From NCBI GenBank assembly GCA_902522415.1, contig CABYVI010000002.1, positions 10,568-74,567 on the forward strand: a DNA stretch of 64,000 bases, given 5' to 3'. The DNA is from an uncultured SAR116 cluster alpha proteobacterium. GTDB taxonomy: Bacteria > Pseudomonadota > Alphaproteobacteria > Puniceispirillales > GCA-002684695. A program made the position numbers and the translations under genes. The notes beneath the pieces were generated by a model. That model did no database searches. It had not been told where the DNA came from and saw nothing but the letters and a program-made list of their open reading frames with translations. This document shows, piece after piece, positions 1,553 through 38,069 of this stretch. Position 1 is the first letter of the stretch, and each line of letters begins with the position of its first letter.

Positions 1553-2231
1553 CTATACTTCCTTGGTCCAAAATTAATTTTTTGTCCATCAAATCAGCTA
1601 TTTCCATATTATGCGTGACAATCAAACAAGTAAGTTTTGTTTTTAAGACTATTTTTTGGAGATGATTAACAATACTAATTGCAGTTTTAGGATCTAAATT
1701 TCCTGTTGGTTCATCTGCGAGCAAAATATTGGGGGCATTTGCAAGACTTCTTGCAATTGCAACACGTTGTTGTTCTCCTCCAGAAAGTGCACCTGGTCTA
1801 TTATTTTTTCTTTTTGAAAGATTCATCATTTCTAAAAGTTCATCAGAACGTTCTAATGCTAGGCTTTTAGTTAATCCAGTAAGCATTTGAGGAATTGCAA
1901 TATTTTCTCGAGCTGAAAATTCTGGAAGCAACCTATGAGATTGAAAAATAAACCCAATTTGATTTAATCTTATTTTATTCTTGCTTGAATACGAACTTGG
2001 ATTAATTAATTTATTATCTAAAAAAATTTCTCCAGAGCTAACATTTTCTAATAATCCAATTAAGTTTAAAAGTGTTGATTTTCCAGAACCACTTGGACCT
2101 ACAAGTGCAGCCATTTCACCTTTTCTAATATTAAATGATATATTTTGCAGCACTCTAATTATATTTTTTCCATTTATATATGAGTGAGAAAGTTTTTTTA
2201 CTTCAAGGTATCCATTCTTCAAATCATTCAT
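1542..2231 (-). CDS. lolD: Lipoprotein-releasing ABC transporter, ATP-binding subunit
   Basis: Walker [13 protein letters not shown] signature [15 protein letters not shown], Walker [13 protein letters not shown]. Overlaps the upstream LolC/E-type permease gene by 8 nt. Confidence 0.85.
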
Positions 2232-4781: not shown

Positions 4782-4933
4782 TAAAATATTCTCGAATTTT
4801 TTTAAAAAATTTATTAAAGTCTTTTAAATATAAATCTAAACTTTTTTTACAAAATTTTAAATTTTTTATTTTAAATTTATCAAATAAAAATTAATAATTT
4901 GAATTATATAATTTTTTATACTAATTCTGTGAA

Positions 4934-5950: not shown

Positions 5951-5963
5951 TTTATTAGAATAT

Positions 5964-7181
5964 ATGGCAGTTAGCTTTGAAAATATTGTTGTTGCTTCAA
6001 AACAATTAAAAGGAAATATCAAAAAAACACCAGTAGTGAAAGCCTCTAAAATTAATTTGAAATTAGGCTGTGAGCTATTTTTAAAATTGGAATGCCTTCA
6101 ATTAACCTCATCATTTAAAACAAGGGGCGCTTTTATAGCTATTAAAAGAAATTGTGTAAAAAACCCTGGAAAAGGAGTTATTGCAATGTCTGCTGGCAAT
6201 CATGCACAAGCAGTTGCCTACCATGCAAAAAATTTAAATGTTCCTGCAACTATTATTATGCCAGAACAAGCACCTTTTTCGAAAGTTTCAAGAACAAAAG
6301 AATTAGGAGCAAAAGTTATTCTTAAAGGAAGAACTTTGAATGAAACAAGTGAATATGTAAAAAAAATTGCTCAAAATGAAGATCTCCAATTAATACACCC
6401 TTATGACAACGAAGATGTTATTAATGGTCAAGGAACTATAGGAATTGAATTGTTTGATGAAATAAATGATTTGGACTGTTTAATTGTTCCAATTGGAGGC
6501 GGTGGTCTTGTATCAGGTACCGCAACAGCAATTAAGCATTTAAAACCCAATATTAAAATTTTTGGTGTTGAAAGTAATCTTTATCCTTCAACATTTAATT
6601 TATTTAAAAATAAAAATTTACCTTGTTTGGGGGATACTATAGCGGATGGTATTGCTGTAAAAAGTCCTGGAGAAATAACCTATCCAATAATTAAAAAATA
6701 TATTGATGATATTTTTTTAGTAGATGAAATTTCAATTGAAAATGCAATAAGCATGCTTTTTGAAGATGAAAGAATAATTTCTGAAGGTGCAGGAGCAGTA
6801 GGGCTAGCAGCAATATTAAACAACAAATCATTTTTTAAAAATAAGAAAATTGGAACTATTATTTGTGGTGGGAATATAGATAGTAGAATTTTTGCAGAAA
6901 TATTAAATAAACAATTATCTCGAGATGGAAAATTAGCAAAAATTAGAATTGGGATAACAGATGAGCCTGGAATGTTAGCAAAAATATCAAATGCAATAGC
7001 TGCAAATGGAGGAAATATAATTGAAATATACCATCAAAGAATGTTTCATGATGTTCCTGTTAAGAAAGCAAAAATAGATGCAATAATTGAAGCACAAAAT
7101 ATTGCGAATATTAATGAGATTATAAATACATTAAAAAAAGAAAGTTTTGAAGTGTCAATTGTTAGTGAAAACTCAAATTAA
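5964..7181 (+). CDS. ilvA: Threonine ammonia-lyase (PLP-dependent, single C-terminal ACT-like regulatory domain)
   Basis: 405 aa. PLP-lysine motif SFKTRGA, glycine loop PIGGGGLVSG, C-terminal regulatory domain (RIGITDEPGMLAKISNAIAANGGNIIE). Confidence 0.85.
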   Translation: MAVSFENIVVASKQLKGNIKKTPVVKASKINLKLGCELFLKLECLQLTSSFKTRGAFIAIKRNCVKNPGKGVIAMSAGNHAQAVAYHAKNLNVPATIIMPEQAPFSKVSRTKELGAKVILKGRTLNETSEYVKKIAQNEDLQLIHPYDNEDVINGQGTIGIELFDEINDLDCLIVPIGGGGLVSGTATAIKHLKPNIKIFGVESNLYPSTFNLFKNKNLPCLGDTIADGIAVKSPGEITYPIIKKYIDDIFLVDEISIENAISMLFEDERIISEGAGAVGLAAILNNKSFFKNKKIGTIICGGNIDSRIFAEILNKQLSRDGKLAKIRIGITDEPGMLAKISNAIAANGGNIIEIYHQRMFHDVPVKKAKIDAIIEAQNIANINEIINTLKKESFEVSIVSENSN

Positions 7182-7189
7182 TTGATTGT

Positions 7190-7897
7190 ATGACTATCCA
7201 AAAAAAAATATTAGATCTATCATATATTCCTATTCAAGTAAGCAACAGTTCAAGTTGTCCTTATATTACAAATAAAGTAGAAACAAGGGCTTTCATTAAT
7301 TTGTCAGATTACCCTGAAGCACATGATCAACTTGCTGAAATAGGTTTTAGAAGGGTTGAAAATTGGGCTTATAAACCAATCTGTTCAAATTGCAACCAAT
7401 GCATACCTATCAGAGTAAACTGTAAAAAATTTGTTCCAAATAAAAACCAGAAAAGATGTATTAAGACAAAACTAGTAAGAAATATATTACCAAGTATAGC
7501 AAAACAAGAACATTACGAACTATTTAAAAAATATCAAAAAGAAAGACATACAGATGGTCTAATGTCAAAAATGTCGTGGGATAATTATACTGATATGATA
7601 AATCTTACTCCAATTAATTCTATGATTTTTGAATATAGAAATGAACAAAAAAAACTTTTAGGAGTTATTTTGATTGATATTCAGAGAGATGGATTATCTG
7701 CAGTATATTCATTTTATGATAACAAAATTAAAAAAATAAGTATTGGTAAATATATGATTATAGATAGTATTAATTTCGTAAAGGATAATAAATTGAAATA
7801 TTTATATCTAGGTTACTATATAAAAAACAATGAAAAGATGAATTATAAAAATCAATTTTATCCAAATGAAACTTTTTCAAAAGGAAAATGGAAATAA
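7190..7897 (+). CDS. bpt: Arginyl/leucyl-tRNA--protein transferase of the N-end rule pathway (ATE/Bpt family)
   Basis: 235 aa. N-terminal Cys motif (SSCPYITNK), central CNQCIPIRV, C-terminal ATE_C-like region (LSAVYSFYD, YLYLGYYI). Confidence 0.8.
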   Translation: MTIQKKILDLSYIPIQVSNSSSCPYITNKVETRAFINLSDYPEAHDQLAEIGFRRVENWAYKPICSNCNQCIPIRVNCKKFVPNKNQKRCIKTKLVRNILPSIAKQEHYELFKKYQKERHTDGLMSKMSWDNYTDMINLTPINSMIFEYRNEQKKLLGVILIDIQRDGLSAVYSFYDNKIKKISIGKYMIIDSINFVKDNKLKYLYLGYYIKNNEKMNYKNQFYPNETFSKGKWK

Positions 7898-7903
7898 GTT
7901 TTT

Positions 7904-10117
7904 TTATATAAATTTTGCAGGTTTAGGAAAGCCTCTTGGTGGCATTTTGCCTGAACCCCCTCTTCTTCCAATCCATGTGGTTAAATCTTTTTCAATTCTT
8001 GTTCTGTCTTTTCCTTGAGACCATGAGAGACCTTTATTTAAATTTATGATCTTAGCATCTGAACAAAGGCCATTTTTATATCTCTGCAAAATAACACCTT
8101 GACCTTTATTCAACTCAGGTATTTCGTCTAAGTCTAGAACTAGCAATTTCCTGTTCTCACCTACAATAGCTAACATATCACCGTCTATGGTCAGACAGGC
8201 AATAGCTTTATTAGAATTTTTAAGATTTAGTATCTGTTTACCAGATTTTCTAATAGTTACTACATCTTTCAAATTGACTATAAAACCTCTTCCATCTGAT
8301 GAAACAAGAATAACCCTTTGATCTTTAAATTCACTTAAAAATAAAATATTATTTTCAGAAATATCTTCAAATAATAAAGACAAAGGTTCACCAAAACCAC
8401 GCCCAGAAGGTAATTTATGAACTAAAATGCTATAAAATTTTCCATTACTTGCAAAAAGACATAACTGGTCTAAACTGTTTAAACAAATTGATAAATTTAG
8501 ACCGTCACCTTCTTTAAATTTTATATTTTCAATATCTGTAACATGCCCTTTAATTGTTTTAATCCAACCTTTTTTTGATACAACAACAGTTATTGGTTCT
8601 TTTTCAATTTCTAATGTAATATCATTAATATATTCAACATTTTTATTTTCAATGATTGTTTTCCTCGTTGTTTGATTTTTAAAAATACTTTTCAAATTCT
8701 TTATTTCTTTCGATATTTTTGCCCATTGAGCTTTTCTGCTTTTTAACAGTTTATCAAGACTGGTTTTTTCACTTAAAAGCTTATCTTTTTCTGAAATAAT
8801 TTCTTTTTCCTCAAGCTTTCTTAAATTTCTTAACTTCATGTCTAAAACTGCTATTGCTTGAGTTTCAGACAACTTAAAATTATATTTTAGAGAAACTTTT
8901 GGATCATCATCTTCTCTAATTATTTGTAAAACTTTATCTAAGTTAAGAAAAACAATTAAATAACTCTCTAGGATCTCTAAACGATTTTTAATTTTATCTA
9001 ATGCGAAAGTTTTAATTCTTACCAAAACTTTTCTTCTATGATTCAGCCAAGCAATAATGGCTTCTTTTATTGACATAACTTTAGGAGTTCCACTTTCATC
9101 TAAAACATTTAGATTAAGTTGAATTTTAGTTTCTAGATCAGTTAATCGGAATAAAACTTCCATCAAATCATTGTGGTTAATATTCCTTGATTTTGGTTCA
9201 ATAATAATTCTTATATCATCAGATGATTCATCACGAATGTCAGAAACCATAATTAATTTTTTTTCAGATATAAGTTCAGCAATTTTTTCTATTATTTTTG
9301 ATTTTTGAATTTGATAAGGTATTTCATTTATACATATTTGCCATGTCCCAGATGGTTTCTTTTCAACAAACCAGTTTGCTCTTAATCTAAATGAACCTTT
9401 TCCATTTTTATATGCCTCATTAATTTTTTCTAAAGGTTCAATTATTGTTCCACCAGTTGGAAAATCAGGGCCTTTTATTTTTTTTAGAATTTCATCGTCT
9501 ATTACATCTCTATCTTGAATTAGCAACTCTGCAGCATCACATATTTCTACAAGATTGTGCGATGGAATTGAACAAGCCATCCCAACTGCGATACCCTGAG
9601 CACCATTTACGAGCAAATTTGGAAAGCCCGATGGAAGTAAAACTGGTTCTTTACCTACACCATCATAAGTTTCTTTAAAGTCTATAGCATTTTCATTTAT
9701 ACCCTCTAACATTAAACGAGAAACATCGCTTAATCTAGCTTCAGTATATCTCATAGCGGCAGCATTATCTCCATCAATGTTGCCAAAATTGCCTTGCCCT
9801 TCAACTAAAGTAAAATTCATAGAAAATTCTTGTGCCATTCTCACCATAGATTCATATATTGCCGCATCACCATGAGGGTGGTATTTACCCATAACATCTC
9901 CGACTACTCTAGCTGACTTTTTAAAGCTTTTATTAGGAAGAAGATTTAAAAGATTCATTGCATAAAGCAATCTTCTATGAACTGGCTTCAAACCATCTCT
10001 TACATCGGGCAAGGATCTAGATGTAATTGTTGAAAGTGCATATTGTAAGAACCTTTTACTAAGTTCTTTTGAAAAATCTGCAATTTCTTGATCATTATTT
10101 TTAGTTTCTATTTCCAT
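7904..10117 (-). CDS. parC: DNA topoisomerase IV subunit A
   Basis: 737 aa type IIA topoisomerase A subunit ([19 protein letters not shown], active-site region [10 protein letters not shown]). Size and lack of a long acidic tail fit ParC rather than GyrA. Confidence 0.88.
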
Positions 10118-12435: not shown

Positions 12436-13191
12436 CTAAGTAATTTTTTTGAAAATTCTATCATATCTGATATTAAACGGCCATCTCCAAAATTCCCAAA
12501 ATTTTGTATCTCCACTTATTGAGAAGAAAATAAAATTACCTTTACCAACAAAATTTTCAAAAGGGACAAACCAACCACCATTGGCTCTGCTGTCAAGAGA
12601 ATTATCTCTATTATCACCCATAACAAAGTAATTATTATCAGGCACCACGAACTCTTTTGTATTATCAAGGATCTGAAAATCATTTATATTTAGTACAGAG
12701 TAATTTTTACCATTTTCTAAAGTTTCTTTATATTTATCCATGTTTTGTTCAAATACTCTTTTATAAATATGTTTATAATTTCCTTCTTCAGTTTGATTAA
12801 CTAACTTTTTGTTAATATAAAGTTTACCTAATTTCATCTGAATAGTATCACCTGGAAGGCCAACAACTCTCTTAATATAATTAATACTAGTATTTGTTGG
12901 TAGTTTAAAAACGGCAACATCTCCCCTTTTTGGTGTATCAGAAAATAATCTATTCTGAGGCAATGGAATTATTCCAAAAGGAAAAGAATACCTAGAGTAT
13001 CCATAACTAAATTTTGATACAAAAAGATAATCACCAATTAAAAGATTAGGCAGCATTGAACCAGATGGAATATTATAAGGTTCAAATAATAATGATCTAA
13101 AAATAATTGCTATAAAAACAGCATAAAAAATAGTTTTAAAAAATTCAAAAAATCCACCATCTTTTGCTTTCTTTATTTTTTTTTTATTCAT
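12436..13191 (-). CDS. lepB: Signal peptidase I
   Basis: 251 aa. Catalytic Ser box IPSGSMLPNL, Lys box YIKRVVGLPGD, GDNRDNSLDSR box. Confidence 0.9.
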   Translation of the reverse strand: MNKKKIKKAKDGGFFEFFKTIFYAVFIAIIFRSLLFEPYNIPSGSMLPNLLIGDYLFVSKFSYGYSRYSFPFGIIPLPQNRLFSDTPKRGDVAVFKLPTNTSINYIKRVVGLPGDTIQMKLGKLYINKKLVNQTEEGNYKHIYKRVFEQNMDKYKETLENGKNYSVLNINDFQILDNTKEFVVPDNNYFVMGDNRDNSLDSRANGGWFVPFENFVGKGNFIFFSISGDTKFWEFWRWPFNIRYDRIFKKIT

Positions 13192-13591
13192 GCTTAATAC
13201 TTTCTATAATGACAAATGAGGAACAATAGTTTTTTTCGTCACTTAAACTTACGTGAATTTTATAATTACAACTCTTTGGAACTAATTCCAAACATAATTT
13301 TTTGGCTGTATTAAAAATTTTAATATCTGGTTGCCCTCCATCTAAGTTTAAGATTTCTACATCTTGAAAGCTTGGAATTTTGGATTTTTTATTATGATTT
13401 AAAGCCTTATAAAAGGCTTCTTTAGCTGCAAATCTATTTGCGAGTCTCTGAATAAATTTATTGTTATTTTCAGAGAAAAATTCTAATTCATTTTTAGTAT
13501 ATATTTTATTTAAAAACTTATTACCAAATTTTTCATATATTATTCTAATTCTATTGATATCGACCAAATCATTTCCAATTCCTAAAATCAT
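13184..13591 (-). CDS. acpS: Holo-[acyl-carrier-protein] synthase
   Basis: 135 aa. N-terminal ILGIGNDLVDINRI and FAAKEAFYKAL motifs. 8 nt overlap with lepB. Confidence 0.85.
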   Translation of the reverse strand: MILGIGNDLVDINRIRIIYEKFGNKFLNKIYTKNELEFFSENNNKFIQRLANRFAAKEAFYKALNHNKKSKIPSFQDVEILNLDGGQPDIKIFNTAKKLCLELVPKSCNYKIHVSLSDEKNYCSSFVIIESIKHE

Positions 13592-14379
13592 TAAAAACTG
13601 TTTACTCTAGCATCATTAATTATTTTCCTCATTTTTTTTATGGCTATTTCGATACCTGAAAATATAGCTTCTCCAATTATAAAATGACCAATATTTAGCT
13701 CTGTAATTTCAATTATTTTAGCAATTTCAACAACATTATGGTAATTTAATCCATGACCTGCATGCACATCTAGACCAACAGATTTTGCATATTTTGCACT
13801 AACTTTAATTTTTTCTAACTCAGCCTGAATTTCATTATTATCTATAGCATCACAATATTTACCAGTATGTATTTCAATTGCATCAACACCTAGCTCAGAT
13901 GCAATTTTTATTTGATTAATATCTGGATCTAAAAATAATGAGCATAAAATACCAGCTTTTTTTAATTTTAAAATATTTTTAAAAATCGTTTTATTTTCAA
14001 TAAGGTTAAGTCCTCCTTCTGTTGTTAGTTCATTTCGTTTTTCAGGAACTATACAACAAGCATAAGGCAGATTTTCAACAGCAAAATTTACCATTTCATC
14101 TGTAGAGGCCATTTCAAAATTCAGTGGAATTTTTAATTCATTTAAAAGATTTTTTATATCAGTGTCTTTTACGTGTCTCCTATCTTCTCTCAAATGAGCT
14201 GTAATATTATCAACACTACAATATTCAGCTTGCTTTGCAATAATTACAGGATCTGGATGTTTCCCACCACGAGCATTTCTAACAGTTGCTACGTGATCAA
14301 TATTTATTCCTAAACGAATTTTATCCAATAGTTTTACCCTTTCTAATTTTACGTTTATACTGCCAATAATTAACAACAA
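13591..14379 (-). CDS. pdxJ: Pyridoxine 5'-phosphate synthase
   Basis: LGINIDHVATVRNARGG, HLREDRRH and the EIHTG segment. Track start is the longest ORF. A TTG at 14326-14328 (MLDKIRLGINIDH) overlaps the upstream gene's stop inside TTGGATAA and gives a more typical 246 aa protein. Confidence 0.9.
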   Translation of the reverse strand: MLLIIGSINVKLERVKLLDKIRLGINIDHVATVRNARGGKHPDPVIIAKQAEYCSVDNITAHLREDRRHVKDTDIKNLLNELKIPLNFEMASTDEMVNFAVENLPYACCIVPEKRNELTTEGGLNLIENKTIFKNILKLKKAGILCSLFLDPDINQIKIASELGVDAIEIHTGKYCDAIDNNEIQAELEKIKVSAKYAKSVGLDVHAGHGLNYHNVVEIAKIIEITELNIGHFIIGEAIFSGIEIAIKKMRKIINDARVNSF

Positions 14380-28043: not shown

Positions 28044-28937
28044 TTAATTACTATTTTTATCTCTTCTTCTTGTTGTTCTGCCTTTAGATCTAGGTTTAGT
28101 AAAATCCTCATCACCTTCTAGTTTGCCGCTGACATTAGAATATTGCTTAGTAAAAGCATCTGACCAACTTCCTAATTTTTCACTGAAGTCTTTCCAATTT
28201 TCTATTTTTTCTTGATCCCTATACATTGCAAATGGTCTCAAAGTACTCTCATAAAAATCAACTTGCTTATGAGTTCGGTATTGCATTGGAGAATACTTAT
28301 TCCAATGAAGACATTGCTCAAGAGGTCTTCTGTATCTTTTATCCTGAGTTTCTGCAGGATAACCAATTGGAATTGTACCAAAAGCTTTCATCCATTTAGG
28401 ATAACCTAATAAATTTGATAATTCATTATTAGTTGTGTCCTCCCCTCCTCCAGAAAGCCAAGCTGAGGTTAGACCCTCAGCTGCAACTCCTAATTGAATA
28501 TTCTGGATTGCAGCACCCATCGAACACAAAAATATAGCATCATTATTTCGAGAATACTCTTCTTCGTAATCTTTTGTTGAAGCATGTGGAAAACAAACTT
28601 TCCACCTAGGATCACCAAGAACTATTATTATTGCAACTGTATTAGCTAAATAAGTTTTCTTTACTGCTGGGAAACCTTTTGCAAAGTCAACGAGTCTTTG
28701 AGCTTGTTTAAGAAATATATTTGTTGTGGATGCAATCATCTTTTTATCTTTAATAACAATAAAATCAAAACACTGTGTGTTAGCACCTGATGGAGCCCAT
28801 CTTCCACAATCAACAATTCTTTTTAAAGTACCTTTTGAAACCGTTTTTCCAGGTTCAAATTTTCTTACACTCCGTCTTTTTTTTAAAACCTTATCAAATA
28901 ATATTTCTTTTTTAATCTCCATGTTTGAAATCTCCAA
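28044..28937 (-). CDS. Nitroreductase-family flavoprotein with ~90-aa C-terminal extension
   Basis: 297 aa. RRSVRKFEP, RWAPSGANTQCFDF, and the GTIPIGYP segment. Tail ends in the basic KPRSKGRTTRRRDKNSN. Confidence 0.8.
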   Translation of the reverse strand: MEISNMEIKKEILFDKVLKKRRSVRKFEPGKTVSKGTLKRIVDCGRWAPSGANTQCFDFIVIKDKKMIASTTNIFLKQAQRLVDFAKGFPAVKKTYLANTVAIIIVLGDPRWKVCFPHASTKDYEEEYSRNNDAIFLCSMGAAIQNIQLGVAAEGLTSAWLSGGGEDTTNNELSNLLGYPKWMKAFGTIPIGYPAETQDKRYRRPLEQCLHWNKYSPMQYRTHKQVDFYESTLRPFAMYRDQEKIENWKDFSEKLGSWSDAFTKQYSNVSGKLEGDEDFTKPRSKGRTTRRRDKNSN

Positions 28938-29058
28938 GTTAAATAGAAACTGAAAAATGTCTTTAATTATTGATAATTAATATACTTATTAGTTGAATTA
29001 TAAATTAAAAAATAATTTCATAAATTGATTATCCAAAAGATTCAATTACCTTTATTAA

Positions 29059-29430
29059 ATGGACAATGAATTTGTAATTTTATCTAAATTATTATTCTTA
29101 TCTTTTATTCACTCAACTTTGATAACGATTTTTTTATACTTAAGATCTTTTAAAAAACTTCAAATCATTTTATTGGTGACTATTTTTACATTTATTATTT
29201 ATTTTTTAAATTTATTTATATTAAATAGTAATTATAAAACCTTTTATATTTTTAATGCTTCAATTTTAACAATAATTTATTTTGAGTTTTCAATAATTTT
29301 AGAAAAATATTTTTTTAGAGACTTTCTTGAAAATTCTCTGCCGATTTCAATAAATTATATAATAAGTTTTACTTTGATGATAAATGCTGGATACTTTACT
29401 TTAATGTTAATCTATCATGTATTTAAATAA
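29059..29430 (+). CDS. Hypothetical multi-pass membrane protein
   Basis: 123 aa, about 4 hydrophobic helices, no motif recognised. In AT-rich DNA such ORFs can be spurious. Confidence 0.35.
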   Translation: MDNEFVILSKLLFLSFIHSTLITIFLYLRSFKKLQIILLVTIFTFIIYFLNLFILNSNYKTFYIFNASILTIIYFEFSIILEKYFFRDFLENSLPISINYIISFTLMINAGYFTLMLIYHVFK

Positions 29431-29495
29431 ATGAATTATAATTAATTTTTATATAAGATTAAGTAAAACGAGCAATCAGTGTAATTTTGTTTATT

Positions 29496-29612
29496 TTACT
29501 TTAAAAAATTTTTTATAAGGTAACTTATAATTTTCCATCCATCAGTAATTAATACATACAGGAAAATTCCAATAATCGCTATACCAATAATGATTGCTAT
29601 ATAATCGTACAT
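29496..29612 (-). CDS. Possible 38-aa single-TM micropeptide
   Basis: Hand translation: MYDYIAIIIGIAIIGIFLYVLITDGWKIISYLIKNFLK. Not in the track (too short). Only coding-like feature in a 330 nt gap. Confidence 0.2.
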   Translation of the reverse strand: MYDYIAIIIGIAIIGIFLYVLITDGWKIISYLIKNFLK

Positions 29613-29722
29613 AATTCATATGTTAATATTAACTAATTTATATTTTAATTTATTTTGGTTTTTAAATCTAAAATTTTATTTTTAACAACCCAAATAATTT
29701 ATCAAACAATTATTTTTCCTTC

Positions 29723-29750
29723 TCGACAATCAAAAATTTCTGCTATAAAT
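29723..29750 (+). promoter_or_regulatory. Duplicated copy of the tRNA-Ser promoter (-35 TCGACA, -10 TATAAAT/TAAATT) in front of the truncated tRNA copy
   Basis: Lies within the 96-nt block 29714-29809, which matches 30851-30946 with 5 mismatches. Both hexamers are intact. Confidence 0.35.
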
Positions 29751-29761
29751 TCACATCAAGT

Positions 29762-29820
29762 GGAGGGATGGCAGAGCGGTAATGCAGCGGATTGCTAATC
29801 CGTCAACCCCTGATTAGGGT
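29762..29820 (+). pseudogene. Truncated tRNA-Ser(GCU) copy: acceptor 5' strand through anticodon arm and variable-arm stem; no T-arm or 3' acceptor strand
   Basis: 29762-29809 is identical (48/48) to positions 1-48 of the intact tRNA at 30899. After that only the variable-arm stem (ACCC...GGGT) is recognisable, and no TPsiC arm follows. Confidence 0.85.
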
Positions 29821-29996
29821 CTTTTACCGACAATTTTAAGACAAATAACCATACCTTATTATACACTAAATTTGGCTAAATAAAAGGCATTTAGAGTAAA
29901 TTTTGTACGAAAAATTAACTTGTCTAAAAACGACATAGTTATGCAACGGATTAAAATTATTTGTCTATAAGATTTCTATTGTTTAATAAAATATTC

Positions 29997-30749
29997 TCAA
30001 GAACAAGGAACTGGAATAGTAAGAGTACAACCGAATCCTTCTTCCCAAGCTCCACAAGTGACACAACCAGCTTCATTTTTCTTTACAACCTCCTTAGCCT
30101 GTTCTTTTGCCTGTTCTTTTGCCTCCTCTTTCGCTTGATTTTTAGCTATTTCTTTTGCAGCTTCATTAGCTTTGATTTTTGCATCTTTTTTGATTTGGTC
30201 TTTAACCTCATCTACTCCTTTACCAATCAATTCAAATGTTTTACCAAGTACTTTCTCAGCTTTTTGATTATCTTCACCAATAATCTTATTAAGAGGAACG
30301 AATACCAATTCTCCCTCAATCATAACCGCAACCATTCCATCCTTTGATGATGTGTTTTTTATCTTTTCAATAAGCTCATCTTCTGTCATTTCACTGACAG
30401 GTTTATTTATTTCCTGCTTAAGCGGTTCTTCCTCTTTAGGTTCTTTATTTTCAAAATCAGCAAATGCTTTATCCAAAACTGCATCGATTTCAGCATCACT
30501 TTTTCCCTGTAATTCACTCATAGGTATATTGATAATGTCTTCATCCATAACAATGAAGAGTTGTTTATTTAATACACCTACTTGGTCACCTCCGTTTTTA
30601 TACTTTTCAATAAGCTTTTTCTTTTCATCTGGCGAAGCAAAATCATATACATTTCCATCAGACGACCAAACCTGTCCACTTTTAATCGTGAATGCATGAG
30701 TATTAAAAGAAATGAATATACATATAATTATGATTGAAAATATTCTCAT
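29997..30749 (-). CDS. Secreted protein, paralogue A (conserved N-terminal domain, AKE-repeat region, Cys-rich C-terminal tail)
   Basis: 250 aa. Signal peptide MRIFSIIIICIFISFNTHA. First ~100 aa are highly similar to ORF 31317-32003. C-terminus is AKEEAKEQAKEQAKE followed by GCVTCGAWEEGFGCTLTIPVPCS. Confidence 0.65.
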   Translation of the reverse strand: MRIFSIIIICIFISFNTHAFTIKSGQVWSSDGNVYDFASPDEKKKLIEKYKNGGDQVGVLNKQLFIVMDEDIINIPMSELQGKSDAEIDAVLDKAFADFENKEPKEEEPLKQEINKPVSEMTEDELIEKIKNTSSKDGMVAVMIEGELVFVPLNKIIGEDNQKAEKVLGKTFELIGKGVDEVKDQIKKDAKIKANEAAKEIAKNQAKEEAKEQAKEQAKEVVKKNEAGCVTCGAWEEGFGCTLTIPVPCS

Positions 30750-30850
30750 ATCTTAATTGTATCGTACAAAAAAATTAAATTCAAAGATTGTAATAACTAT
30801 TTTCCTAATTTCGACATTAAAATTTGAAAACATATTATTTTAATTTATAA
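30450..30850. repeat. Copy 1 of a ~400-nt duplicated block (5' ~300 nt of the secreted-protein gene plus ~100 nt upstream)
   Basis: By-eye alignment with 31704-32105. Upstream parts share strings such as AAAAAATTAAATTCAAAGATT and TACTATTTTC. Boundaries approximate. Confidence 0.7.
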
Positions 30851-30859
30851 TTTTCCTTC

Positions 30860-30888
30860 TCGACAACTAAATTTTTCTGCTATAAATT
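30860..30888 (+). promoter_or_regulatory. Candidate sigma70-type promoter of tRNA-Ser(GCU)
   Basis: TCGACA (30860-30865), 17-nt spacer, TAAATT (30883-30888; overlapping TATAAAT). The tRNA 5' end lies 10 nt downstream. Confidence 0.4.
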
Positions 30889-30898
30889 CACATCAAAT

Positions 30899-30986
30899 GG
30901 AGGGATGGCAGAGCGGTAATGCAGCGGATTGCTAATCCGTCAACCCGTAAAGGGTTGCGAGGGTTCAAGTCCCTCTCCCTCCGCCA
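30899..30986 (+). tRNA. tRNA-Ser (anticodon GCU), CCA encoded
   Basis: Hand fold. Acceptor GGAGGGA/TCCCTCC, anticodon stem GCGGA/TCCGT (one G-U pair) with loop TTGCTAA, long variable arm (ACCC GTAA GGGT), T-arm GAGGG TTCAAGT CCCTC, discriminator G, CCA. Confidence 0.95.
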
Positions 30987-31021
30987 ATTAAATCACAATA
31001 AATCAAAGATTTAAGCCCTAA

Positions 31022-31054
31022 GTGTCAGGATTGAATACTGACACCTTTATTTTG
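31022..31054 (+). terminator. Rho-independent terminator downstream of tRNA-Ser
   Basis: GTGTCAG (31022-31028), 9-nt loop, CTGACAC (31038-31044), followed by CTTTATTTTG. Confidence 0.5.
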
Positions 31055-31316
31055 CTATTTTTTGAAGAATTTTGTTGCACTATTTAAAGTTATAGCTGCA
31101 AATATTATCGCAATTAGTTTCTTCATTTTTATTTCTTCTCTTTTCTTCTTTTTCTAGCAAATACCCTAAGAAGCCTTAATGACATTCTGATAATCAAACC
31201 GATTGGCAGTCTCATTTTCTTCTCCCACAAAATTTACTTCAAACTTAGCACAAACCTAAAGGCAAAAAATATTGGAAATTAACTTAAGTTAAATAAATTG
31301 AAAGTTTTTAAATAAA

Positions 31317-32003
31317 CTATTCAGAAACCGAAGCAGCTTTTTTATCATCCGAAACAAAAACAGAAGCAGTTACTCCTTGTCCATTAAAGGAACCTGAATT
31401 TGAATGAAATTCTTGAATTGCTCCCATTATTTCTTGCATTTTTGCTTGTTCCTTAGCAGCATCTTTAATTGCCTCTTTAGCCCAGTCTTTATCCATATCT
31501 TCAGTTGTTATTGCTAGGTTTGAACCTCCCCATGCAAAAGAAACGGGTCCATCTTTAGCTTTTTCTTTATAATCGTTGACAATTTCAGAAACGCTTAACT
31601 CTTTCGTCTCTTCTCTAGTATTTTTAATAATATCCTTTGTGTCTAAAACAATTTCATTATCTAATAATGAGTCAACTTCAGGCCTATTCTTTATTTTGTC
31701 TTTTTCAAATTTTTCAAAAGCCTCTTCTAAAATTAAGTCCATGTCACTATCACTAGCACCTCTAATTTTACTTAATGGAATATTTATAATATTGTCACCT
31801 ACTATTACAAAGAGGTTGTTATTCATAACCCCTACTTGGTCGCCACCACTTTTATGCTTTTCAATAAGTTTTTTCTTTTCATCTGGAGATGCAAAGTCAT
31901 ATATATTTCCATCAGATGACCAAACCTGTCCACTTTTAATAGTGAATGCATGAACATTATTAGCAATGAATATACATATAATAATGATTGAAAATATTCT
32001 CAT
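31317..32003 (-). CDS. Secreted protein, paralogue B
   Basis: 228 aa. Signal peptide MRIFSIIIICIFIANNVHA, then AFTIKSGQVWSSDGNIYDFASPDEKKKLIEKHKSGGDQVGV, near-identical to paralogue A. C-terminal half diverges and lacks the Cys-rich tail. Confidence 0.65.
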   Translation of the reverse strand: MRIFSIIIICIFIANNVHAFTIKSGQVWSSDGNIYDFASPDEKKKLIEKHKSGGDQVGVMNNNLFVIVGDNIINIPLSKIRGASDSDMDLILEEAFEKFEKDKIKNRPEVDSLLDNEIVLDTKDIIKNTREETKELSVSEIVNDYKEKAKDGPVSFAWGGSNLAITTEDMDKDWAKEAIKDAAKEQAKMQEIMGAIQEFHSNSGSFNGQGVTASVFVSDDKKAASVSE

Positions 32004-32105
32004 ATCTTGATTGTTAGGTGAAAAAAATTAAATTCAAAGATTTTTATTACTATTTTCATATTTACGACATTTAAATCTGAAAGCAAATAAGTTTAATTTA
32101 TATGA
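31704..32105. repeat. Copy 2 of the ~400-nt duplicated block
   Basis: See copy 1 (30450-30850). Offset is 1254 nt at the start codons. Confidence 0.7.
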
Positions 32106-32575
32106 TAAGATGTAATTCATATAAAGAAAGTCGCTATTGTCGTTCTTGGCGCTATTGTCGTGACGAGTGGTCTCTAAGTGTTTGATTTTGTTGATTTTCG
32201 TTTGCTCTCCTTCCACCAGAAGCGTTCTCTGATTTAGTTCATAAGAGCTCATAAAAGCTCTAAAAACATTATGATTTCAATGTTTCATCGATTTATTCTC
32301 ACTTTTAAACATTCATAAGATATAGAGAGGAGTACACTCTATATTTACCATGTTATATACATCTTAGTTACAACCATCCAAACAATAAAACCTCAATATG
32401 GCCACAATATTAATTAATATTCTTTAGATGAATAAGTCCTAAATATGTTAAACAGTACATATGTACAATTTAATATTTAAAGTAGACATTAATAAAAAAT
32501 CTAAATTTATAATATTCAATTTGTATGTTTATAGTTTAATATTTTTATTTTATTTATATAATATAAGGTAAAAAT

Positions 32576-33289
32576 TTGATTAAAATATTAAATATTTCAA
32601 CTGTAGTTTATATACTCATACTATTTTTTTTATCTCCAGTTTATGGGTTAGAAAAGGATAGAGATAAAATAATCCAAGAAATCATATATAATTCTATTTC
32701 TTCTTATGATGGTAAATGTGCTTGCCCTTATCAAAGGACTACTAAAGGATCACGATGTGGTAAAAGAAGTGCTTACTCAAAACCGGGGGGATATGAGCCT
32801 CTTTGCTTTCCTGAAGACATAACTGAAGATATTTTAAATGCATTTATAAATTCTGCTAAAACTGATAAAAATCCTGCAGTTAATATTCTGGGCAGAGTGT
32901 CAATTACTGACGGTGATACTATTAAATTAGGAACAGTTAAAGTTAGATTACATGGTATAGACGCTCCTGAAAGTAAACAAAATTGTAAAGATGCAAAAAA
33001 TAAAGCCTATGCCTGTGGAAGACAATCAACAGCGTTTTTAAAATCATTAGTTAAAAATAAAGAAGTACAATGCGAAGGAAAAGATAAAGACCGATATGGA
33101 AGAATTATTGGAATTTGTTATGCAGATGAAATTAATTTGAATTCTACAATGGTAAAAGAAGGTTGGGCCATAGCATATCGATATTACTCAAAGGATTATG
33201 TTAAAGAAGAAGAGATGGCCAAAAGAGATAAAAAAGGTATCTGGCAGGGCAGTTTTGAAGAGCCTTATATTTGGAGAAAAAATAATTAA
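32576..33289 (+). CDS. Secreted thermonuclease (staphylococcal nuclease/SNase fold) with Cys-rich N-terminal module
   Basis: 237 aa, TTG start, signal peptide. SNase core: DGDTIKL, VRLHGIDAPES, DRYGRIIGICY, MVKEGWAIAYRYY. N-terminal module: CACPYQRTTKGSRCGKRSAYSKPGGYEPLC. Confidence 0.85.
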   Translation: MIKILNISTVVYILILFFLSPVYGLEKDRDKIIQEIIYNSISSYDGKCACPYQRTTKGSRCGKRSAYSKPGGYEPLCFPEDITEDILNAFINSAKTDKNPAVNILGRVSITDGDTIKLGTVKVRLHGIDAPESKQNCKDAKNKAYACGRQSTAFLKSLVKNKEVQCEGKDKDRYGRIIGICYADEINLNSTMVKEGWAIAYRYYSKDYVKEEEMAKRDKKGIWQGSFEEPYIWRKNN

Positions 33290-33356
33290 TTATAGAGAAA
33301 AAGTGGATTGAAAGTAGGGTTAATATATTATAATTTTAAATAAAGTAAGGCTATCA

Positions 33357-33397
33357 GAGGGTTAGATTTGGTATTAAAGCACCCTCTCCCTCCACCA
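33357..33397 (+). pseudogene. Decayed 3' remnant of a tRNA-Ser gene (T-stem with expanded loop, 3' acceptor strand, CCA)
   Basis: GAGGG-TTAGATTTGGTATTAAAGCA-CCCTCTCCCTCCACCA versus intact GAGGG-TTCAAGT-CCCTCTCCCTCCGCCA. The 18-nt stretch 33382-33399 matches the tRNA 3' end plus 2 flanking nt at 17/18. Confidence 0.6.
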
Positions 33398-33402
33398 ATA
33401 AT

Positions 33403-34035
33403 TCAACATTTAGGCAATGTTATTTTTTGGCAATTATTGTATAGTTTTTGCGCTTCTATTATTTGACTTTCACTCATTTTACTTTCAATCATAATTAAAT
33501 TATTAAAAGCTGCTTCAACACCTTTTTCTTTTGCTATACTCCACCACATATGAGCCTTAGGAAAATTTTTTCCTACGCCTTGTCCAAAATAATACATATT
33601 ACCAATAATAATTTGCGATGCTGGGTGTCCCATAAAAGAAGCATCAAGAAATAAATTCATAGCTTTATTAAAATTTAAACTAGTTCCCTTTCCATGATAA
33701 TATAATAATCCTAAAGCATATTTTGATAACATATGTCCATTATCAGAACCTAGTGTAAACCATCCCAAAGCCTCTTCATTGTCTTTATCAACACCAATTC
33801 CATTTTTATACATTAAGCCTAAATTATATTGTGCAGTAGCATTTCCCTGGACAGCTTCAAAGCTAAGATAGTAAAGGGCTCTGTCATAGTCTTTCATTTC
33901 AAGTGCAAACATTCCTTTCTCAAGCTCATTTGAGAGTGCTGAACTTAAATAAAAACAAAAAAATATGAACAAAAAAATTCTTATCATTTTATAAAATTTT
34001 GGTACAAAATTTGAATAAAAATCATTATGACACAT
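33403..34035 (-). CDS. Sel1-repeat (SLR/TPR-like) secreted protein
   Basis: Four to five Sel1 repeats (AQYNLGLMYKNGIGVDKDNEEALGWF; SKYALGLLYYHGKGTSLNFNKAMNLF; QIIIGNMYYFGQGVGKNFPKAHMWW). Likely true start is the internal MIRIFLFIFFCFYLSSALS signal peptide. Confidence 0.8.
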   Translation of the reverse strand: MCHNDFYSNFVPKFYKMIRIFLFIFFCFYLSSALSNELEKGMFALEMKDYDRALYYLSFEAVQGNATAQYNLGLMYKNGIGVDKDNEEALGWFTLGSDNGHMLSKYALGLLYYHGKGTSLNFNKAMNLFLDASFMGHPASQIIIGNMYYFGQGVGKNFPKAHMWWSIAKEKGVEAAFNNLIMIESKMSESQIIEAQKLYNNCQKITLPKC

Positions 34036-34390: not shown

Positions 34391-35878
34391 TTATTCACTC
34401 AATAAACTATCAATTCTTTCCATTAATTCATCTTTATTGTAGAGATCGTAATAAGATGATGCCATAAGAGCAGGCGGACCAAAAAAATATCTTTCATACA
34501 ATGCTTGCCTACTACCAAAACCAGATATTGCAACGTCATGTGCTAACCTAAACATAGCAACTCTATTTTTTGAGTCTAAATTTGAAAGTTGAAAATATTT
34601 TTCAACATCCTCTGAAATTTCATTTGCAAAATCTGCTTCGGATGGGGTGGCCATAAGAGATGATGCTCCAAGGAGTTGCAAAATTTCAACCATTCTTGGA
34701 TACATTCTTGGATATAAATTTCTAGATGTTTCTAGTGGATATCTTAAAGGTATATAGTTTCCAAATTGATCTTCATGAGCTTGTTCTTCAGCAGAAAATA
34801 ATAAAGCTCTTATGCTTTCAGTCATTTGCATGACTTCAGCAATTAAACCTTTTGTATACAAATCTTTGTCTCTACCAGAAGCTTTCACAATTGAAGTCAT
34901 CAAACCAACCATAAATTCAGATTTAGCTAATTTTAAACAAGCAACTTGATGCATCATATGAACTACTGCATTTGTGGCACTAAAAGCTGGATTGCATAAC
35001 TCTGGCTCTCCATACATAAAAATTCTTTCCCAAGGAACTAAAACATTGTCAAAGATAATAACTGCATCCATTTCTTCATACCTTGAAGATAAAGGAGCAT
35101 CAAAATGAGACTTTCCCAAATCATAACTATCTCTACAAATTAGACGAAGACCTTTAGTTGCTATTGGTAATGCAAATGCAAATGCAAATGGAATATTATC
35201 GGGTGTAGCTTTTAAAACAGTAGACGGAAACACTTCTATTTCGTCAGCTAAAGGACCCAAGGTTGCAAGCAATCTTGCTCCATTAACAATAATGCCAGCA
35301 TCAGTTTCTTTAATTACTTGGAGAGCAACTTTCTCAGAAAATTTTCCTTTGTAACCTTGTTGATGATTGTAGGTTGGGTTTACAAGTGTATGCGTTAAAA
35401 CTTTATCATTTTTTCTAACATAATTATAGTAATTAACCATATTTTGTGCCATGACTTTTCCACCTTGGCCTTTAATTCCTTTTTCAAGAAAAGTACTAGC
35501 AGATGCAAAAGACATTAATGAGGCATTTTTATAGTCGGGAGTTCTTCCAAAATAACCATTAGACCACTTAGCCCACTCATAATATGATTTACCTCTGTCT
35601 TTTATATCTTCCTTTGATTTTGGCGTTTTAAAAGCTAAAGCGCATCTATCACCATCATCATCTAAATATGTTAAATGATTAATATATTTTGGTTCGTGCT
35701 GCCTATCAATAAAATTTGCAAGGGTATGGGCACAGCTTTTTAAACCATTTTCATTAGTAACGTCTTGAACTTTTCTACCATGAATCCAAACATTTCTGTC
35801 ATCTCTCAAACCTTCAAGATATTGTTTACCTGTTCTGATGCCCTTATTTGACAAATTATTTATTACTAAATCATCCAT
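34391..35878 (-). CDS. HpaB-family flavin-dependent monooxygenase, oxygenase component (4-hydroxyphenylacetate 3-hydroxylase / 4-hydroxybutyryl-CoA dehydratase superfamily)
   Basis: 495 aa. N-terminal TGKQYLEGLRDDRNVWIHGRKV and overall length and pattern of the HpaB/PvcC family. No partner flavin reductase nearby. Confidence 0.75.
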   Translation of the reverse strand: MDDLVINNLSNKGIRTGKQYLEGLRDDRNVWIHGRKVQDVTNENGLKSCAHTLANFIDRQHEPKYINHLTYLDDDGDRCALAFKTPKSKEDIKDRGKSYYEWAKWSNGYFGRTPDYKNASLMSFASASTFLEKGIKGQGGKVMAQNMVNYYNYVRKNDKVLTHTLVNPTYNHQQGYKGKFSEKVALQVIKETDAGIIVNGARLLATLGPLADEIEVFPSTVLKATPDNIPFAFAFALPIATKGLRLICRDSYDLGKSHFDAPLSSRYEEMDAVIIFDNVLVPWERIFMYGEPELCNPAFSATNAVVHMMHQVACLKLAKSEFMVGLMTSIVKASGRDKDLYTKGLIAEVMQMTESIRALLFSAEEQAHEDQFGNYIPLRYPLETSRNLYPRMYPRMVEILQLLGASSLMATPSEADFANEISEDVEKYFQLSNLDSKNRVAMFRLAHDVAISGFGSRQALYERYFFGPPALMASSYYDLYNKDELMERIDSLLSE

Positions 35879-36023: not shown

Positions 36024-37745
36024 TTGACACTGACTGGGGAAACAATGAATAGAACAATTGACTTCAATATAATTATTAGACAACTCCGAATTTACACTGG
36101 AATATTATTATTTTTTTATTCTTTCACGCATCTCCTTAATCACTCAGTTAATGTGATTTCAATTGAAGCTGCAGACTTTGTAAGAGAGAATTATTTTCAT
36201 TTATTATGGAAAAACTCTATTGGATATTTTCTTCTTTATGCATCTTTAACTATTCATATAATTTTAGGCTTTTATTCAATATTAACAAAAAAATCTTATA
36301 AAATAACTGGCAGGGAATGGGTCCAAATTTTATTTCCAGTTTTAGCATTGCTTGTCTTGTTGCAACATATAGGTGGTGGATTTATTCTATCTCGTTTTGA
36401 TGTTGATATAAAATATTCACTTTTATACGCATTGCTTTCATCTGATCCAAATGAGTTAGTTGCAGGTGCTGTTTTATTTTCTCTAATGGTAATATTTATA
36501 TGGGTACATGGGGTTATTGGGATACATGGTTTATTAAAGTTTAACTTCAAATCATACCACAAGTTTATGTTTGGGTTTAAATTTATTTACTGGTTTGTAC
36601 CAATAGGTGCAATTTTAGGATTTATATTCGGTTTAAAAGAAACAAGTGTTCTTGCAACAATTGAAAATTTAAAAGGAAACGAAAATTTTATAATGTCTTT
36701 TTTTGCTGCCATACCTCAAGAAGCATTTGCTTATTTAATGCCTGTAGAGCCTTATGTCATGAACAATTACCCTATTTTTGTATTAACAGTATTGGTATTA
36801 TGTATTCTAAATGTTGTAAGATCAAAATATTTTGGTAGAGTTAAAATTTCTTACCCAGGGGGTAATGAATATTCTGTTCCAAGAGGAACAACAGTATTAG
36901 AAGCTAGTAGGCTTGCTGGCATACCTCATGTTTCAGTTTGTGGAGGCAAAGGTAGATGTACGACTTGTAGAGTAAAAATAGTTTCTGGTAATAATAACGT
37001 TTCTGAACCTAATGCGCATGAAACAAAAATAATAAAGAGATTAGGTTTTGATAGCGATGTGAGGTTAGCATGCCAATTAAAAGTATCAAAAAACCTTGGT
37101 ATTCTTCCTCTTATAAATCCTGAGACTAAAGAAATTAAAGCAAGAACACCAGTTGGTTTAAGTGGAAAAGAAAAGGAGACAGTTGTTGTTTTTATTGATC
37201 TTCGTGAATTTACCAAGTTATCTGAGAAGAAACTACCTTATGATGTAGTTTATATTTTAAATAAATATTACAGTGTTTGTGGTGAAATTATTGAAAACAA
37301 CAAAGGAAGATTAGATAAGTTTATTGGGGATGGCATAATGGCTATTTTTGATGGAGCCGAAACTTCATCAGAAAATTGCAAAAATTCAATTAAAGCAGCT
37401 CAACAAGTTTCAATTGCCATTAAGGAGCTAAATGCACAAATAAAGAATGACTTTTCTGAGGAATTAAGATTTGGTATCGGAATTCACGTTGGAAATACAA
37501 TTGTTGGCATGATGGGATATGGCAACACTGTTACGGAAACTGTTGTTGGCGATAACGTAAATATTGCAAGCAGACTTGAAGAATTAAATAAGAAGTATGG
37601 TTCAGAGTTAGTAGTGTCAAAGGATGTACTTGACGCCGCAAAAGTTAATTCAAAACAGTTTAATAATGAGATGATTAAAATTCGTGGTAGAGAAAATGAA
37701 TTACAAATTTTCAGTCTTGAAAATGCTTACAATTTAAAGTTATAA
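36024..37745 (+). CDS. Membrane-anchored [2Fe-2S] ferredoxin-domain / class III adenylate cyclase fusion protein
   Basis: N-terminal ~280 aa has about 6 TM helices with conserved His (FTHLLNH, LTIHIILG, LLQHIGGG, WVHGVIGIHG). Ferredoxin module CGGKGRCTTCRV...LACQ. Cyclase domain VVVFIDLREFTKL, KFIGDGIMAIF, VVGDNVNIASRLEE. More likely start is ATG at 36045 (GGGGA 6 nt upstream) than the track TTG. Confidence 0.85.
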   Translation: MTLTGETMNRTIDFNIIIRQLRIYTGILLFFYSFTHLLNHSVNVISIEAADFVRENYFHLLWKNSIGYFLLYASLTIHIILGFYSILTKKSYKITGREWVQILFPVLALLVLLQHIGGGFILSRFDVDIKYSLLYALLSSDPNELVAGAVLFSLMVIFIWVHGVIGIHGLLKFNFKSYHKFMFGFKFIYWFVPIGAILGFIFGLKETSVLATIENLKGNENFIMSFFAAIPQEAFAYLMPVEPYVMNNYPIFVLTVLVLCILNVVRSKYFGRVKISYPGGNEYSVPRGTTVLEASRLAGIPHVSVCGGKGRCTTCRVKIVSGNNNVSEPNAHETKIIKRLGFDSDVRLACQLKVSKNLGILPLINPETKEIKARTPVGLSGKEKETVVVFIDLREFTKLSEKKLPYDVVYILNKYYSVCGEIIENNKGRLDKFIGDGIMAIFDGAETSSENCKNSIKAAQQVSIAIKELNAQIKNDFSEELRFGIGIHVGNTIVGMMGYGNTVTETVVGDNVNIASRLEELNKKYGSELVVSKDVLDAAKVNSKQFNNEMIKIRGRENELQIFSLENAYNLKL

Positions 37746-37751
37746 ATATGT

Positions 37752-38069
37752 ATGTATGTAAGAGTATTGCAGATAAAATTTCCTAATGAATTAGCAAAAA
37801 AATCTGTTATTGCTTTATCTCGTAATGTAACTAAAGATCATTTCAAAAATGGATTAATCTTAAGACTTCATACTGACATATCATCGAATTCATCAATGAT
37901 AATTTTATTATGGAAAACTAGGGAACTTTTTGAAACTGCTAGAAAAGTATTTGGGGACAGGTTTGTAGCTGAAGTAAAAGAAATGGGAGGCATTATTACA
38001 ATTTCAGAAGGACCATCAGAAGTTGATATTGCAAAAGAAATTGATTTTTCAAAATTTAATCAATTCTAG
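37752..38069 (+). CDS. Hypothetical 105-aa protein, possibly dimeric alpha-beta-barrel (ABM-like) fold
   Basis: Starts 6 nt after the cyclase stop on the same strand. Pattern MYVRVLQIKF ... LLWKTRELFE resembles ABM-like proteins only weakly. Confidence 0.4.
   Translation: MYVRVLQIKFPNELAKKSVIALSRNVTKDHFKNGLILRLHTDISSNSSMIILLWKTRELFETARKVFGDRFVAEVKEMGGIITISEGPSEVDIAKEIDFSKFNQF

Follow-up and report, generated by a model that had tools for sequence, protein, structure and literature searches.

How does a bacterial genome come to hold an intact tRNA gene nested between broken pieces of the same gene? The question is raised by a 64,000-nucleotide (nt) stretch of DNA (the window; G+C content (GC) ~30%) from an uncultured SAR116 cluster alphaproteobacterium, in which an intact tRNA-Ser(GCU) gene lies between a promoter-bearing copy of its own 5′ half and remnants of its 3′ end. 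The first-pass annotation had proposed an ancestral tRNA split by one insert of ~3.5 kb that carries its own replacement tRNA. Comparison with related loci points to a different answer: the locus is likely to be a two-sided integration hotspot at the tRNA-Ser(GCU) of a low-GC member of SAR116 (Puniceispirillales), with a phage-derived left attachment-site (attL) scar on its left and tRNA 3′-end-bounded cassettes on its right.

The intact gene (30899–30986, plus strand) was the one tRNA-Ser(GCU) found by ARAGORN, and it scored 61.3 bits against the Rfam tRNA model. Its promoter P2 (30848–30898, plus strand; TCGACA ... TGCTATAAAT) belongs to repeat D2, and P2 plus the intact tRNA are 97.8% identical to the promoter plus tRNA of a related contig, L086. 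The left half-copy starts with a host-type promoter copy, P1 (29711–29761, plus strand; the left part of D2 and 94% identical to 30848–30898), which adjoins a conserved left flank X, and continues with tRNA nt 1–48 (29762–29809, plus strand; hereafter the core), which are 100% identical to 30899–30946. The repeat initially described between 29714–29809 and 30851–30946 was reproduced (96 nt, 94.8% identity), all five mismatches falling within the promoter part, yet the proposed reach of the left fragment to about tRNA position 57 was not: repeat D2 stops at nt 48, and the sequence beyond is that of a phage. The suggested covariance-model run gave the half-copy an Rfam score of 27.2 bits, under the gathering score of 29, its T arm being absent. 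Since a consensus scan for sigma-70 promoters and terminators did no better than on shuffled sequences, the promoter calls rest on conservation; likewise, the hexamer match of P2 alone was not above chance.

To the right, the conserved host flank begins with a Sel1-repeat protein gene (33403–34035, minus strand; Pfam Sel1), followed by HpaB (34391–35878; Pfam). The closest matches of HpaB, and likewise of the other flanking genes, are metagenome-assembled and single-cell genomes of SAR116/Puniceispirillales, with HpaB amino-acid identities to the window of 91% (L001), 85% (L002) and 85% (L003). The Sel1 flank is syntenic in L001, L003, L004, L005, L084 and L089. Because the tRNA-Ser(GCU) of L001 and L003 stands on the same side of Sel1-HpaB as in the window, but at other distances and with other intervening genes, the neighbourhood of this tRNA is variable among the relatives. 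A metagenome scan that used the conserved promoter and tRNA start as query added 11 contigs.

Empty-site variants, which the first-pass annotation had proposed to seek, were found for each side. On the left, L086 is 96.8% identical to window 28576–29809 and then carries an intact tRNA-Ser in place of the half-copy; the same left flank is joined to an intact tRNA-Ser in L082 (86% identity), and L089 is the equivalent empty site for the lineage of L003. On the right, Sel1-HpaB directly follows an intact tRNA in L084, of which the tRNA 3′ end aligns to window 33382–33397, the start of an alignment of 78.7% identity over 6.4 kb. The ancestral order would thus be left flank, promoter, tRNA and Sel1, and the outer tRNA fragments of the window are most simply taken as the displaced ends of the original gene, because the empty sites show the left end (L086 and L082) and the right end (L084) each attached to an undivided tRNA. 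The earlier view that the material between the outer fragments is inserted relative to the relatives was borne out.

The half-copy is best read as a phage attL scar, made up of host promoter, core and phage arm, and not as a decayed tandem duplicate, because the arm that follows it is ~90% identical to the phage attachment-site (attP) region beside a tyrosine integrase gene and because a right attachment-site junction (attR) exists in L099. Window 29758–29959 is 90–91% identical to the segment just upstream of the integrase gene in L092–L097; past the core the identity is ~90% over ~150 nt (200 nt including the core), and read by eye the similarity extends to a hairpin remnant at ~29985. On this identity and its extension, a putative attP-derived P′ arm remnant was placed at 29810–29985 (plus strand); it holds a pseudo variable arm, TTTTACCGAC, an anticodon-stem-like copy (29941–29952) and the hairpin remnant (29963–29977). 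Identity between the tRNA and the phage attP spans exactly nt 1–48 and is 100% in the attP regions of L092, L093 and L096. As the variable-arm-like CTGATTAGGGTC that comes after nt 48 also occurs in the phage attP, it is phage sequence and not host tRNA, as is the subsequent TTTTACCGAC.

Arms of the window type also follow half-tRNAs in L003, L087, L106–L108 and L116. In L099, an integrase gene, the phage promoter and an intact tRNA-Ser are succeeded by non-phage DNA resembling the flank of L001, and this arrangement is the reciprocal junction, an attR. An orthologous attL adjoins flank X in L003 as well, where a second scar retains the first integrase codons, the phage promoter and part of the core. 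Core identity with the tRNA, a flank matching the attP arm, an integrase beside the donor attP, and both attR and the empty bacterial site (attB) in relatives were all found.

In L003, the ‘middle' half-tRNA is cut at nt 34 and was considered as a second crossover site; this was rejected, as it is an attP-like junction with a deletion of ~150 nt between tRNA GCAGCGGATTG and arm GCAACGGATTG. The phage arm contains a second, imperfect copy of the tRNA anticodon-stem sequence (ATGCAACGGATT versus ATGCAGCGGATT; window 29941–29952), and several different scars arose from deletions between the two copies (L003, reverse complement (rc) 3953–4030) and between arm GGATTGAAAA and the paralog start region TGATTGAAAATATTCTCAT (the arm ends of L105–L108 and L116). 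Junctions of arm and cargo often carry GGATTGAAAATATTCTCAT, which unites arm GGATTGAAAA with the start region of one of the paralogs described below, a sign of microhomology deletions.

The donor of the arm can be traced. In L081 and L088, an open reading frame (ORF) of 305 amino acids (aa) lies beside a promoter-like sequence, tRNA nt 1–48 and an arm homologous to window 29810–29960, and the L081 protein matches the Pfam families Phage_integrase (71.8 bits) and Phage_int_SAM_5. Its homolog P0004 (70% identity) is an integrase encoded at one extremity of a marine contig of 38.9 kb, L092 (639–1550), adjoining an attP at L092 359–560; an integrase of this putative type would recombine attP with attB. 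L092 (GC 35%) encodes a single-subunit RNA polymerase, endonuclease I, a T7-type primase-helicase and DNA polymerase A (precomputed Pfam matches RNA_pol, Phage_endo_I, Helic-prim_T7_N/DnaB_C and DNA_pol_A), and from this Autographiviridae-type RNA polymerase and replication gene set it appears to be a T7-like podophage. The GenBank phage collection gave no close match to the scar and only integrase relatives of ~29% identity, and IMG/VR gave no integrase relative, attP arm or tRNA core.

The right side was built from the other end of the tRNA. Remnant 2 (33357–33397, plus strand) consists of the T-stem strand GAGGG(TT), ~18–20 unrelated bases and the tRNA 3′ end CCCTCTCCCTCCACCA, as the first-pass annotation had held; the 16-mer CCCTCTCCCTCCACCA has one mismatch to the tRNA 3′ end; the 64 kb contain no further match with two or fewer mismatches, and the expectation from 100 shuffles was 0. 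It would be the displaced original 3′ end of the tRNA beside Sel1. A second and more decayed 3′ end, remnant 1 (CTCTCCTTCCACCA; 32205–32218, plus strand), which had escaped the first-pass annotation, aligns to the tRNA 3′ end of L090 and to a remnant in L001, and the L001 remnant adjoins Sel1.

The two remnants delimit two cassettes. In the first, a left part (30987–31277, plus strand), which has a hairpin (31022–31044) followed by a T run, abuts the 3′ end of the intact tRNA. Next comes a module (31278–32102, minus strand) of the gene for secreted-protein paralog B (31317–32003) and its upstream block D3b (32021–32102), and then a right arm (32103–32204, no strand assigned) with direct repeats GCTATTGTCGT at 32133–32143 and 32151–32161. 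The module is 90% identical to one in L105–L108 that has the phage arm on one side and the tRNA on the other. In L114 the same cassette abuts, at its left edge, a 3′ remnant and not an intact tRNA (93% identity over 30972–32077), and similar TGTCG repeats stand ahead of the L114 3′ remnant. The right arm is 85% identical to L001 rc 5066–5145, just before the 3′ remnant of L001, of which the cargo differs from that of the window (a sulfatase-like protein and a 348-aa protein). A 16-mer from this arm matched five viral contigs in IMG/VR and was set aside as a chance match, there being no extended similarity and the GC being unrelated.

Cassette 2 (32219–33356, plus strand), as defined by its Pfam SNase gene and comparison with L090, carries the secreted staphylococcal-type nuclease (32576–33289, plus strand; SNase, 82 bits) that had already been recognized between the fragments. 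In L090, a downstream cassette edge like that after remnant 1, together with an SNase homolog, directly follows an intact tRNA; the nuclease-cassette edge had no match in IMG/VR. The L090 cassette has in addition an LprI-family (lysozyme-inhibitor-like) secreted protein and a small lipoprotein-like ORF (364–882 and 1097–1468 in the oriented contig); because the window version is without both, the content of the 3′-side cassettes varies between genomes. Such cassettes occur independently in L001, L090, L114 and L003, while L084 is empty. With 3′-end repeats delimiting inserts that are present or absent independently of one another, an empty site included, the right side is probably a small additive tRNA-linked island of two cassettes, each bounded by a tRNA 3′-end repeat.

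These observations are consistent with the following course of events. A T7-like podophage with a tyrosine integrase would carry an attP immediately upstream of the integrase gene, its core being tRNA nt 1–48 and preceded by a phage promoter-like sequence. Recombination inside the core, where the crossover is presumed to have fallen, would leave host promoter, nt 1–48 and phage P′ arm at the far end (attL) and rebuild an intact tRNA beside the integrase (attR). Window 29711–29985 would be such an attL whose prophage body was later lost and its place presumably taken by a block of one secreted-protein gene, paralog A, with its upstream block D3a and a host-type promoter, the only elements now between the arm and the intact tRNA. 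On the right, two successive insertions, probably made by an integrase, would each have duplicated the tRNA 3′ end, with cassette 1 (30987–32218; paralog B), beside the tRNA, presumably the newer and cassette 2 (32219–33397; nuclease) the older, the outermost remnant being the original 3′ end next to Sel1.

Several points weigh against this account. Phage genes and an integrase are absent from the window. The promoter beside the intact tRNA is of host type and not the phage's; simple integration followed by internal deletion therefore fails for the present layout, because the phage promoter would remain there. Window P1 (AATCAAAAATTT ... CAAGTGG) and the L086 promoter beside flank X (AACTAACATTTT ... 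CAAATGG; oriented ~1138–1187) differ at 5 of 50 nt, and it is P2, beside the intact tRNA, that the L086 variant matches, whereas a core crossover into an L086-like site would predict the reverse. For the 3′-side cassettes, neither an integrase nor an attP donor was found in the window, the fetched loci or IMG/VR, and no close relative of the phage is present in INPHARED or IMG/VR; the identity of the phage comes from precomputed Pfam matches on 11.5 kb of the 38.9-kb L092 contig. Lastly, the comparison contigs are for the most part short metagenome assemblies that break off within the repeats, and L105 is possibly chimeric.

In the block of paralog A, the upstream block D3a (30768–30849, no strand assigned), which abuts the tRNA promoter and is 85% identical to 32021–32102, recurs as part of a D3, promoter and tRNA block in L003, L087 and L085. 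A frame with the arm on the left and D3, promoter and core on the right holds at least four cargos across the window and its relatives: paralog A in the window and in L116, which shares the layout of scar, paralog A and D3; a paralog-B-type gene in L105–L108; a 279-aa protein in L087; and a methyltransferase plus a 352-aa YadA-like protein in L003. A tblastn search of the proteins of the window locus against the phage loci returned no matches. Possible routes for the block include an exchange of cargo through homologous recombination between conserved arm and D3-tRNA flanks, a single-crossover (Campbell-type) insertion of a circle via the 99-nt homology of promoter plus core, an integrase acting in trans, and aberrant excision that takes along host DNA adjoining attL.

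A stronger version of the last two routes holds that single-gene units of phage arm, secreted-protein gene, D3, host-type promoter and core are themselves mobile, so that the paralog-A block would be more than debris. Units might be excised as circles and reinserted at the 48-nt core by the phage integrase in trans, or host DNA beside attL might be moved by aberrant excision, as in specialised transduction. The range of cargos in one frame (window and L116, L105–L108, L087, L003) speaks for this, as do arm similarities that are independent of the host flanks (L087 joins a window-like arm to an L003-like right flank), and aberrant excision from a donor ordered gene, D3, promoter and tRNA would be expected to give a hybrid attachment site with a host-type promoter. 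However, neither circular junctions nor free cassettes were observed, the cargo swaps are explained just as well by homologous recombination between conserved arm and D3-tRNA flanks, and the frequent microhomology deletion scars at arm/cargo junctions suggest decay over clean site-specific movement. We therefore regard mobility of the units as unlikely, although it is the strongest of the rivals to the hotspot of phage scar and 3′-end cassettes.

Less probable again is a tandem duplication of promoter, tRNA, secreted-protein gene and D3, after which the upstream tRNA copy would have lost its 3′ half by decay. The two secreted proteins are genuine paralogs, as first noted (42% identity overall, E value 2e-43, ~90% across residues 16–60), and their 5′ ends and upstream blocks are repeated (D1, 77% identity; D3, 85%); the copies of D1, D2 and D3 are spaced by 1137–1254 nt, with D2b beginning where D3a ends. 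The paralogy and a separate 3′-end integration scar, both part of this alternative as it was originally offered, stand. The reading of the half tRNA as a decayed tandem duplicate does not: D2 ends at nt 48, and the sequence 3′ of the truncation is ~90% identical to the phage attP arm over ~150 nt, not a decayed tRNA. The scar also precedes unrelated cargo in L087 (the 279-aa protein) and L003 (the methyltransferase and the 352-aa protein), and the paralogs are merely 42% identical, versus 97% flank identity of the empty-site contig L086. The phage homology and the differing cargos in one frame also speak against D2, gene and D3 as one tandem unit. Conceivable is a variant in which duplication was followed by phage integration into the upstream copy and then by deletion.

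Still less credible is a single 3.5-kb insert that brought its own replacement tRNA and split one ancestral tRNA-Ser at a point between about nt 57 and 60. Inserted material is indeed flanked by the outer fragments, these appear to be the displaced ancestral ends (left flank plus tRNA in L086; tRNA plus Sel1 in L084), and the two are almost complementary in their coverage of the tRNA. That much of the original proposal of one split tRNA survives, but the near-complementarity would be a coincidence of two attachment-site cores, as the tRNA identity of the left fragment ends at nt 48 with the attP arm after it. The supposed insert is itself divided by the second 3′ remnant at 32205–32218, and its parts are found independently in relatives: the left scar occurs without the right remnant in L003, L087 and L116, L001 has remnant 1 only, the L090 nuclease cassette directly follows an intact tRNA, and in L114 cassette 1 follows a remnant. 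The insert thus resolves into a phage attL on the left and two cassettes on the right. Equally hard to credit is that the half tRNA and arm form a functional RNA gene (a tRNA-like RNA lacking the T arm, or a small RNA from the retained promoter): the promoter is kept, nt 1–48 are fully intact in the window, GGAGGGA and TTTTACC pair at 6 of 7 positions and the Rfam tRNA score reaches 27.2 bits, but the acceptor-like pairing falls to 3–5 of 7 in L101, L003 and L116 without compensating changes, point substitutions have arisen in the core of L003 and L116, a CCA end is not encoded, and the sequence is wholly accounted for as attP/attL.

Two classes of mobile element were also considered and set aside. 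A tblastn search with 16 tyrosine recombinases found no integrase at the locus or elsewhere in the window, in line with the first-pass annotation. For a tycheposon, both a recombinase in the window and any cargo other than secreted proteins are lacking; for an integron, the window has no integrase, and the units bring an upstream block D3 of their own, with tRNA-derived repeats at their borders.

Of the two paralogs, A (29997–30749, minus strand) encodes a 250-aa protein, and both A and B (31317–32003, minus strand) have a signal peptide and no Pfam family. Homologs of paralog A with 83–93% identity were found on contigs of ~1 kb. The 12-mer AAAATATTCTCA has just three copies in the 64 kb (29988–29999, 30737–30748 and 31991–32002), one at the start codon of each paralog and one that overlaps the paralog-A stop codon; this suggests that paralog A adjoins, at its 3′ end, a leftover of the start region of another paralog. 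A large relative of the same secreted-protein family (667–702 aa), which combines the conserved N-terminal domain with an extended C-terminal stretch of MAGQQAQQ-type repeats, is encoded in L001 (rc 44–2047), L091 (oriented 644–2752), L085, L082, L003 (rc 8–688) and L104. In relatives it is placed between the nitroreductase gene and the left tRNA flank; the window has no large member at the nitroreductase-side position, only the two short paralogs near the tRNA.

Other differences lie around the locus. In L091 (oriented ~4143–4202), a tandem duplication of ~34 nt (TTTTTCCTTCTAGCAATTAAAATT ... repeated) is found at the left edge of the tRNA promoter, the position where homology of flank X plus promoter with D3 plus promoter starts. 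The more distant SAR116 relatives L004 (rc ~4000–9000) and L005 (rc 1–3430), with HpaB 82% identical, have no tRNA-Ser beside Sel1 and carry unrelated genes there, including one for an 834-aa MORN-repeat-like protein in L005. On the far side of HpaB, a segment of ~360 nt (window 37702–38068) spanning a 105-aa ORF (37752–38069) has a second, inverted copy (74–76% identity) a few kb onward in L001 (rc 12962–13324) and L003 (rc 13567–13926). Exact-protein look-ups of two flanking ORFs gave no match, the probable cause being different start codons between gene callers.

The locus is a SAR116 example of a known mechanism of tRNA-linked gene insertion. Integrating T7-like pelagiphages of the HTVC019P type insert into tRNA-Cys, tRNA-Leu and tRNA-Arg, and in HTVC021P/022P, 109P and 120P a phage-borne 5′ part completes the disrupted tRNA (Zhao et al., bioRxiv 10.1101/410191). 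The phage described here shares with them an Autographiviridae-type gene set, a tyrosine integrase near the early end (~29% identical to theirs), an attP beside the integrase and a core that is part of a host tRNA. It differs in its host (SAR116, not SAR11), its target (tRNA-Ser(GCU)), the length of its core (48 nt, versus the reported 11–46 bp) and the position of attP, which is upstream of the integrase here and between integrase and RNA polymerase there; moreover, only the scar and no prophage is present in the window. For the T7-like cyanophages P-SSP7 and S-TIP37, integration is at tRNA-Leu and does not lead to stable lysogeny (Shitrit et al., PMC8776855). In these, too, an essentially lytic-type podophage has an integrase and a tRNA-matching attP and leaves remnants rather than stable prophages, but the target is tRNA-Leu, attP is downstream of the integrase, and integration was shown experimentally, whereas here it is read from junction sequences only.

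Uncultured Mediterranean podoviruses of group G16 were assigned to SAR116 by integrase and attachment-site match; their 35-kb genomes have ~35% GC, and an attP matching a tRNA links them to SAR116 single-cell genomes (Mizuno et al., PMC3861242). L092, with 35% GC on a 38.9-kb contig, resembles them in GC, size and attachment-site link. Additive flexible islands beside tRNA genes have also been described (Hackl et al., bioRxiv 2020.12.28.424599; Layoun et al., PMC10872708), and like these the present locus has variable cargo, partial tRNA repeats between insertions and the newest insertion nearest the tRNA, and like most of them it carries no integrase. Unlike them, it has grown on both sides of the tRNA via two cores (nt 1–48 and the 3′ end), and its units are very small (1.1–1.2 kb, a single gene) and without tycheposon hallmark genes.

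The apparent nesting of the tRNA is in this way explained as the footprint of known processes, and no new kind of gene disruption is needed. Added by this locus are the SAR116 and tRNA-Ser(GCU) case itself, the 48-nt 5′ core, the attP upstream of the integrase and the insertions on both sides of one tRNA. The junctions (an attP core, attL in several lineages and one attR) provide sequence-level evidence that integrase-bearing T7-like phages leave their marks in SAR116, and they offer a host link for an uncultured marine phage group. There is a slim chance that the arm-bounded single-gene units are integrase-less cassettes spreading among SAR116 via the attachment-site system of a T7-like phage; if true, secreted-protein genes would form an integron-like array on the 5′ side of tRNA-Ser, supplied by a phage that is usually deemed lytic. 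The locus also shows how tiny single-gene cassettes for secreted proteins build up to the left and right of a single tRNA in a marine bacterium with a streamlined genome, which is useful for the annotation of flexible islands and for host prediction by attachment-site matching.

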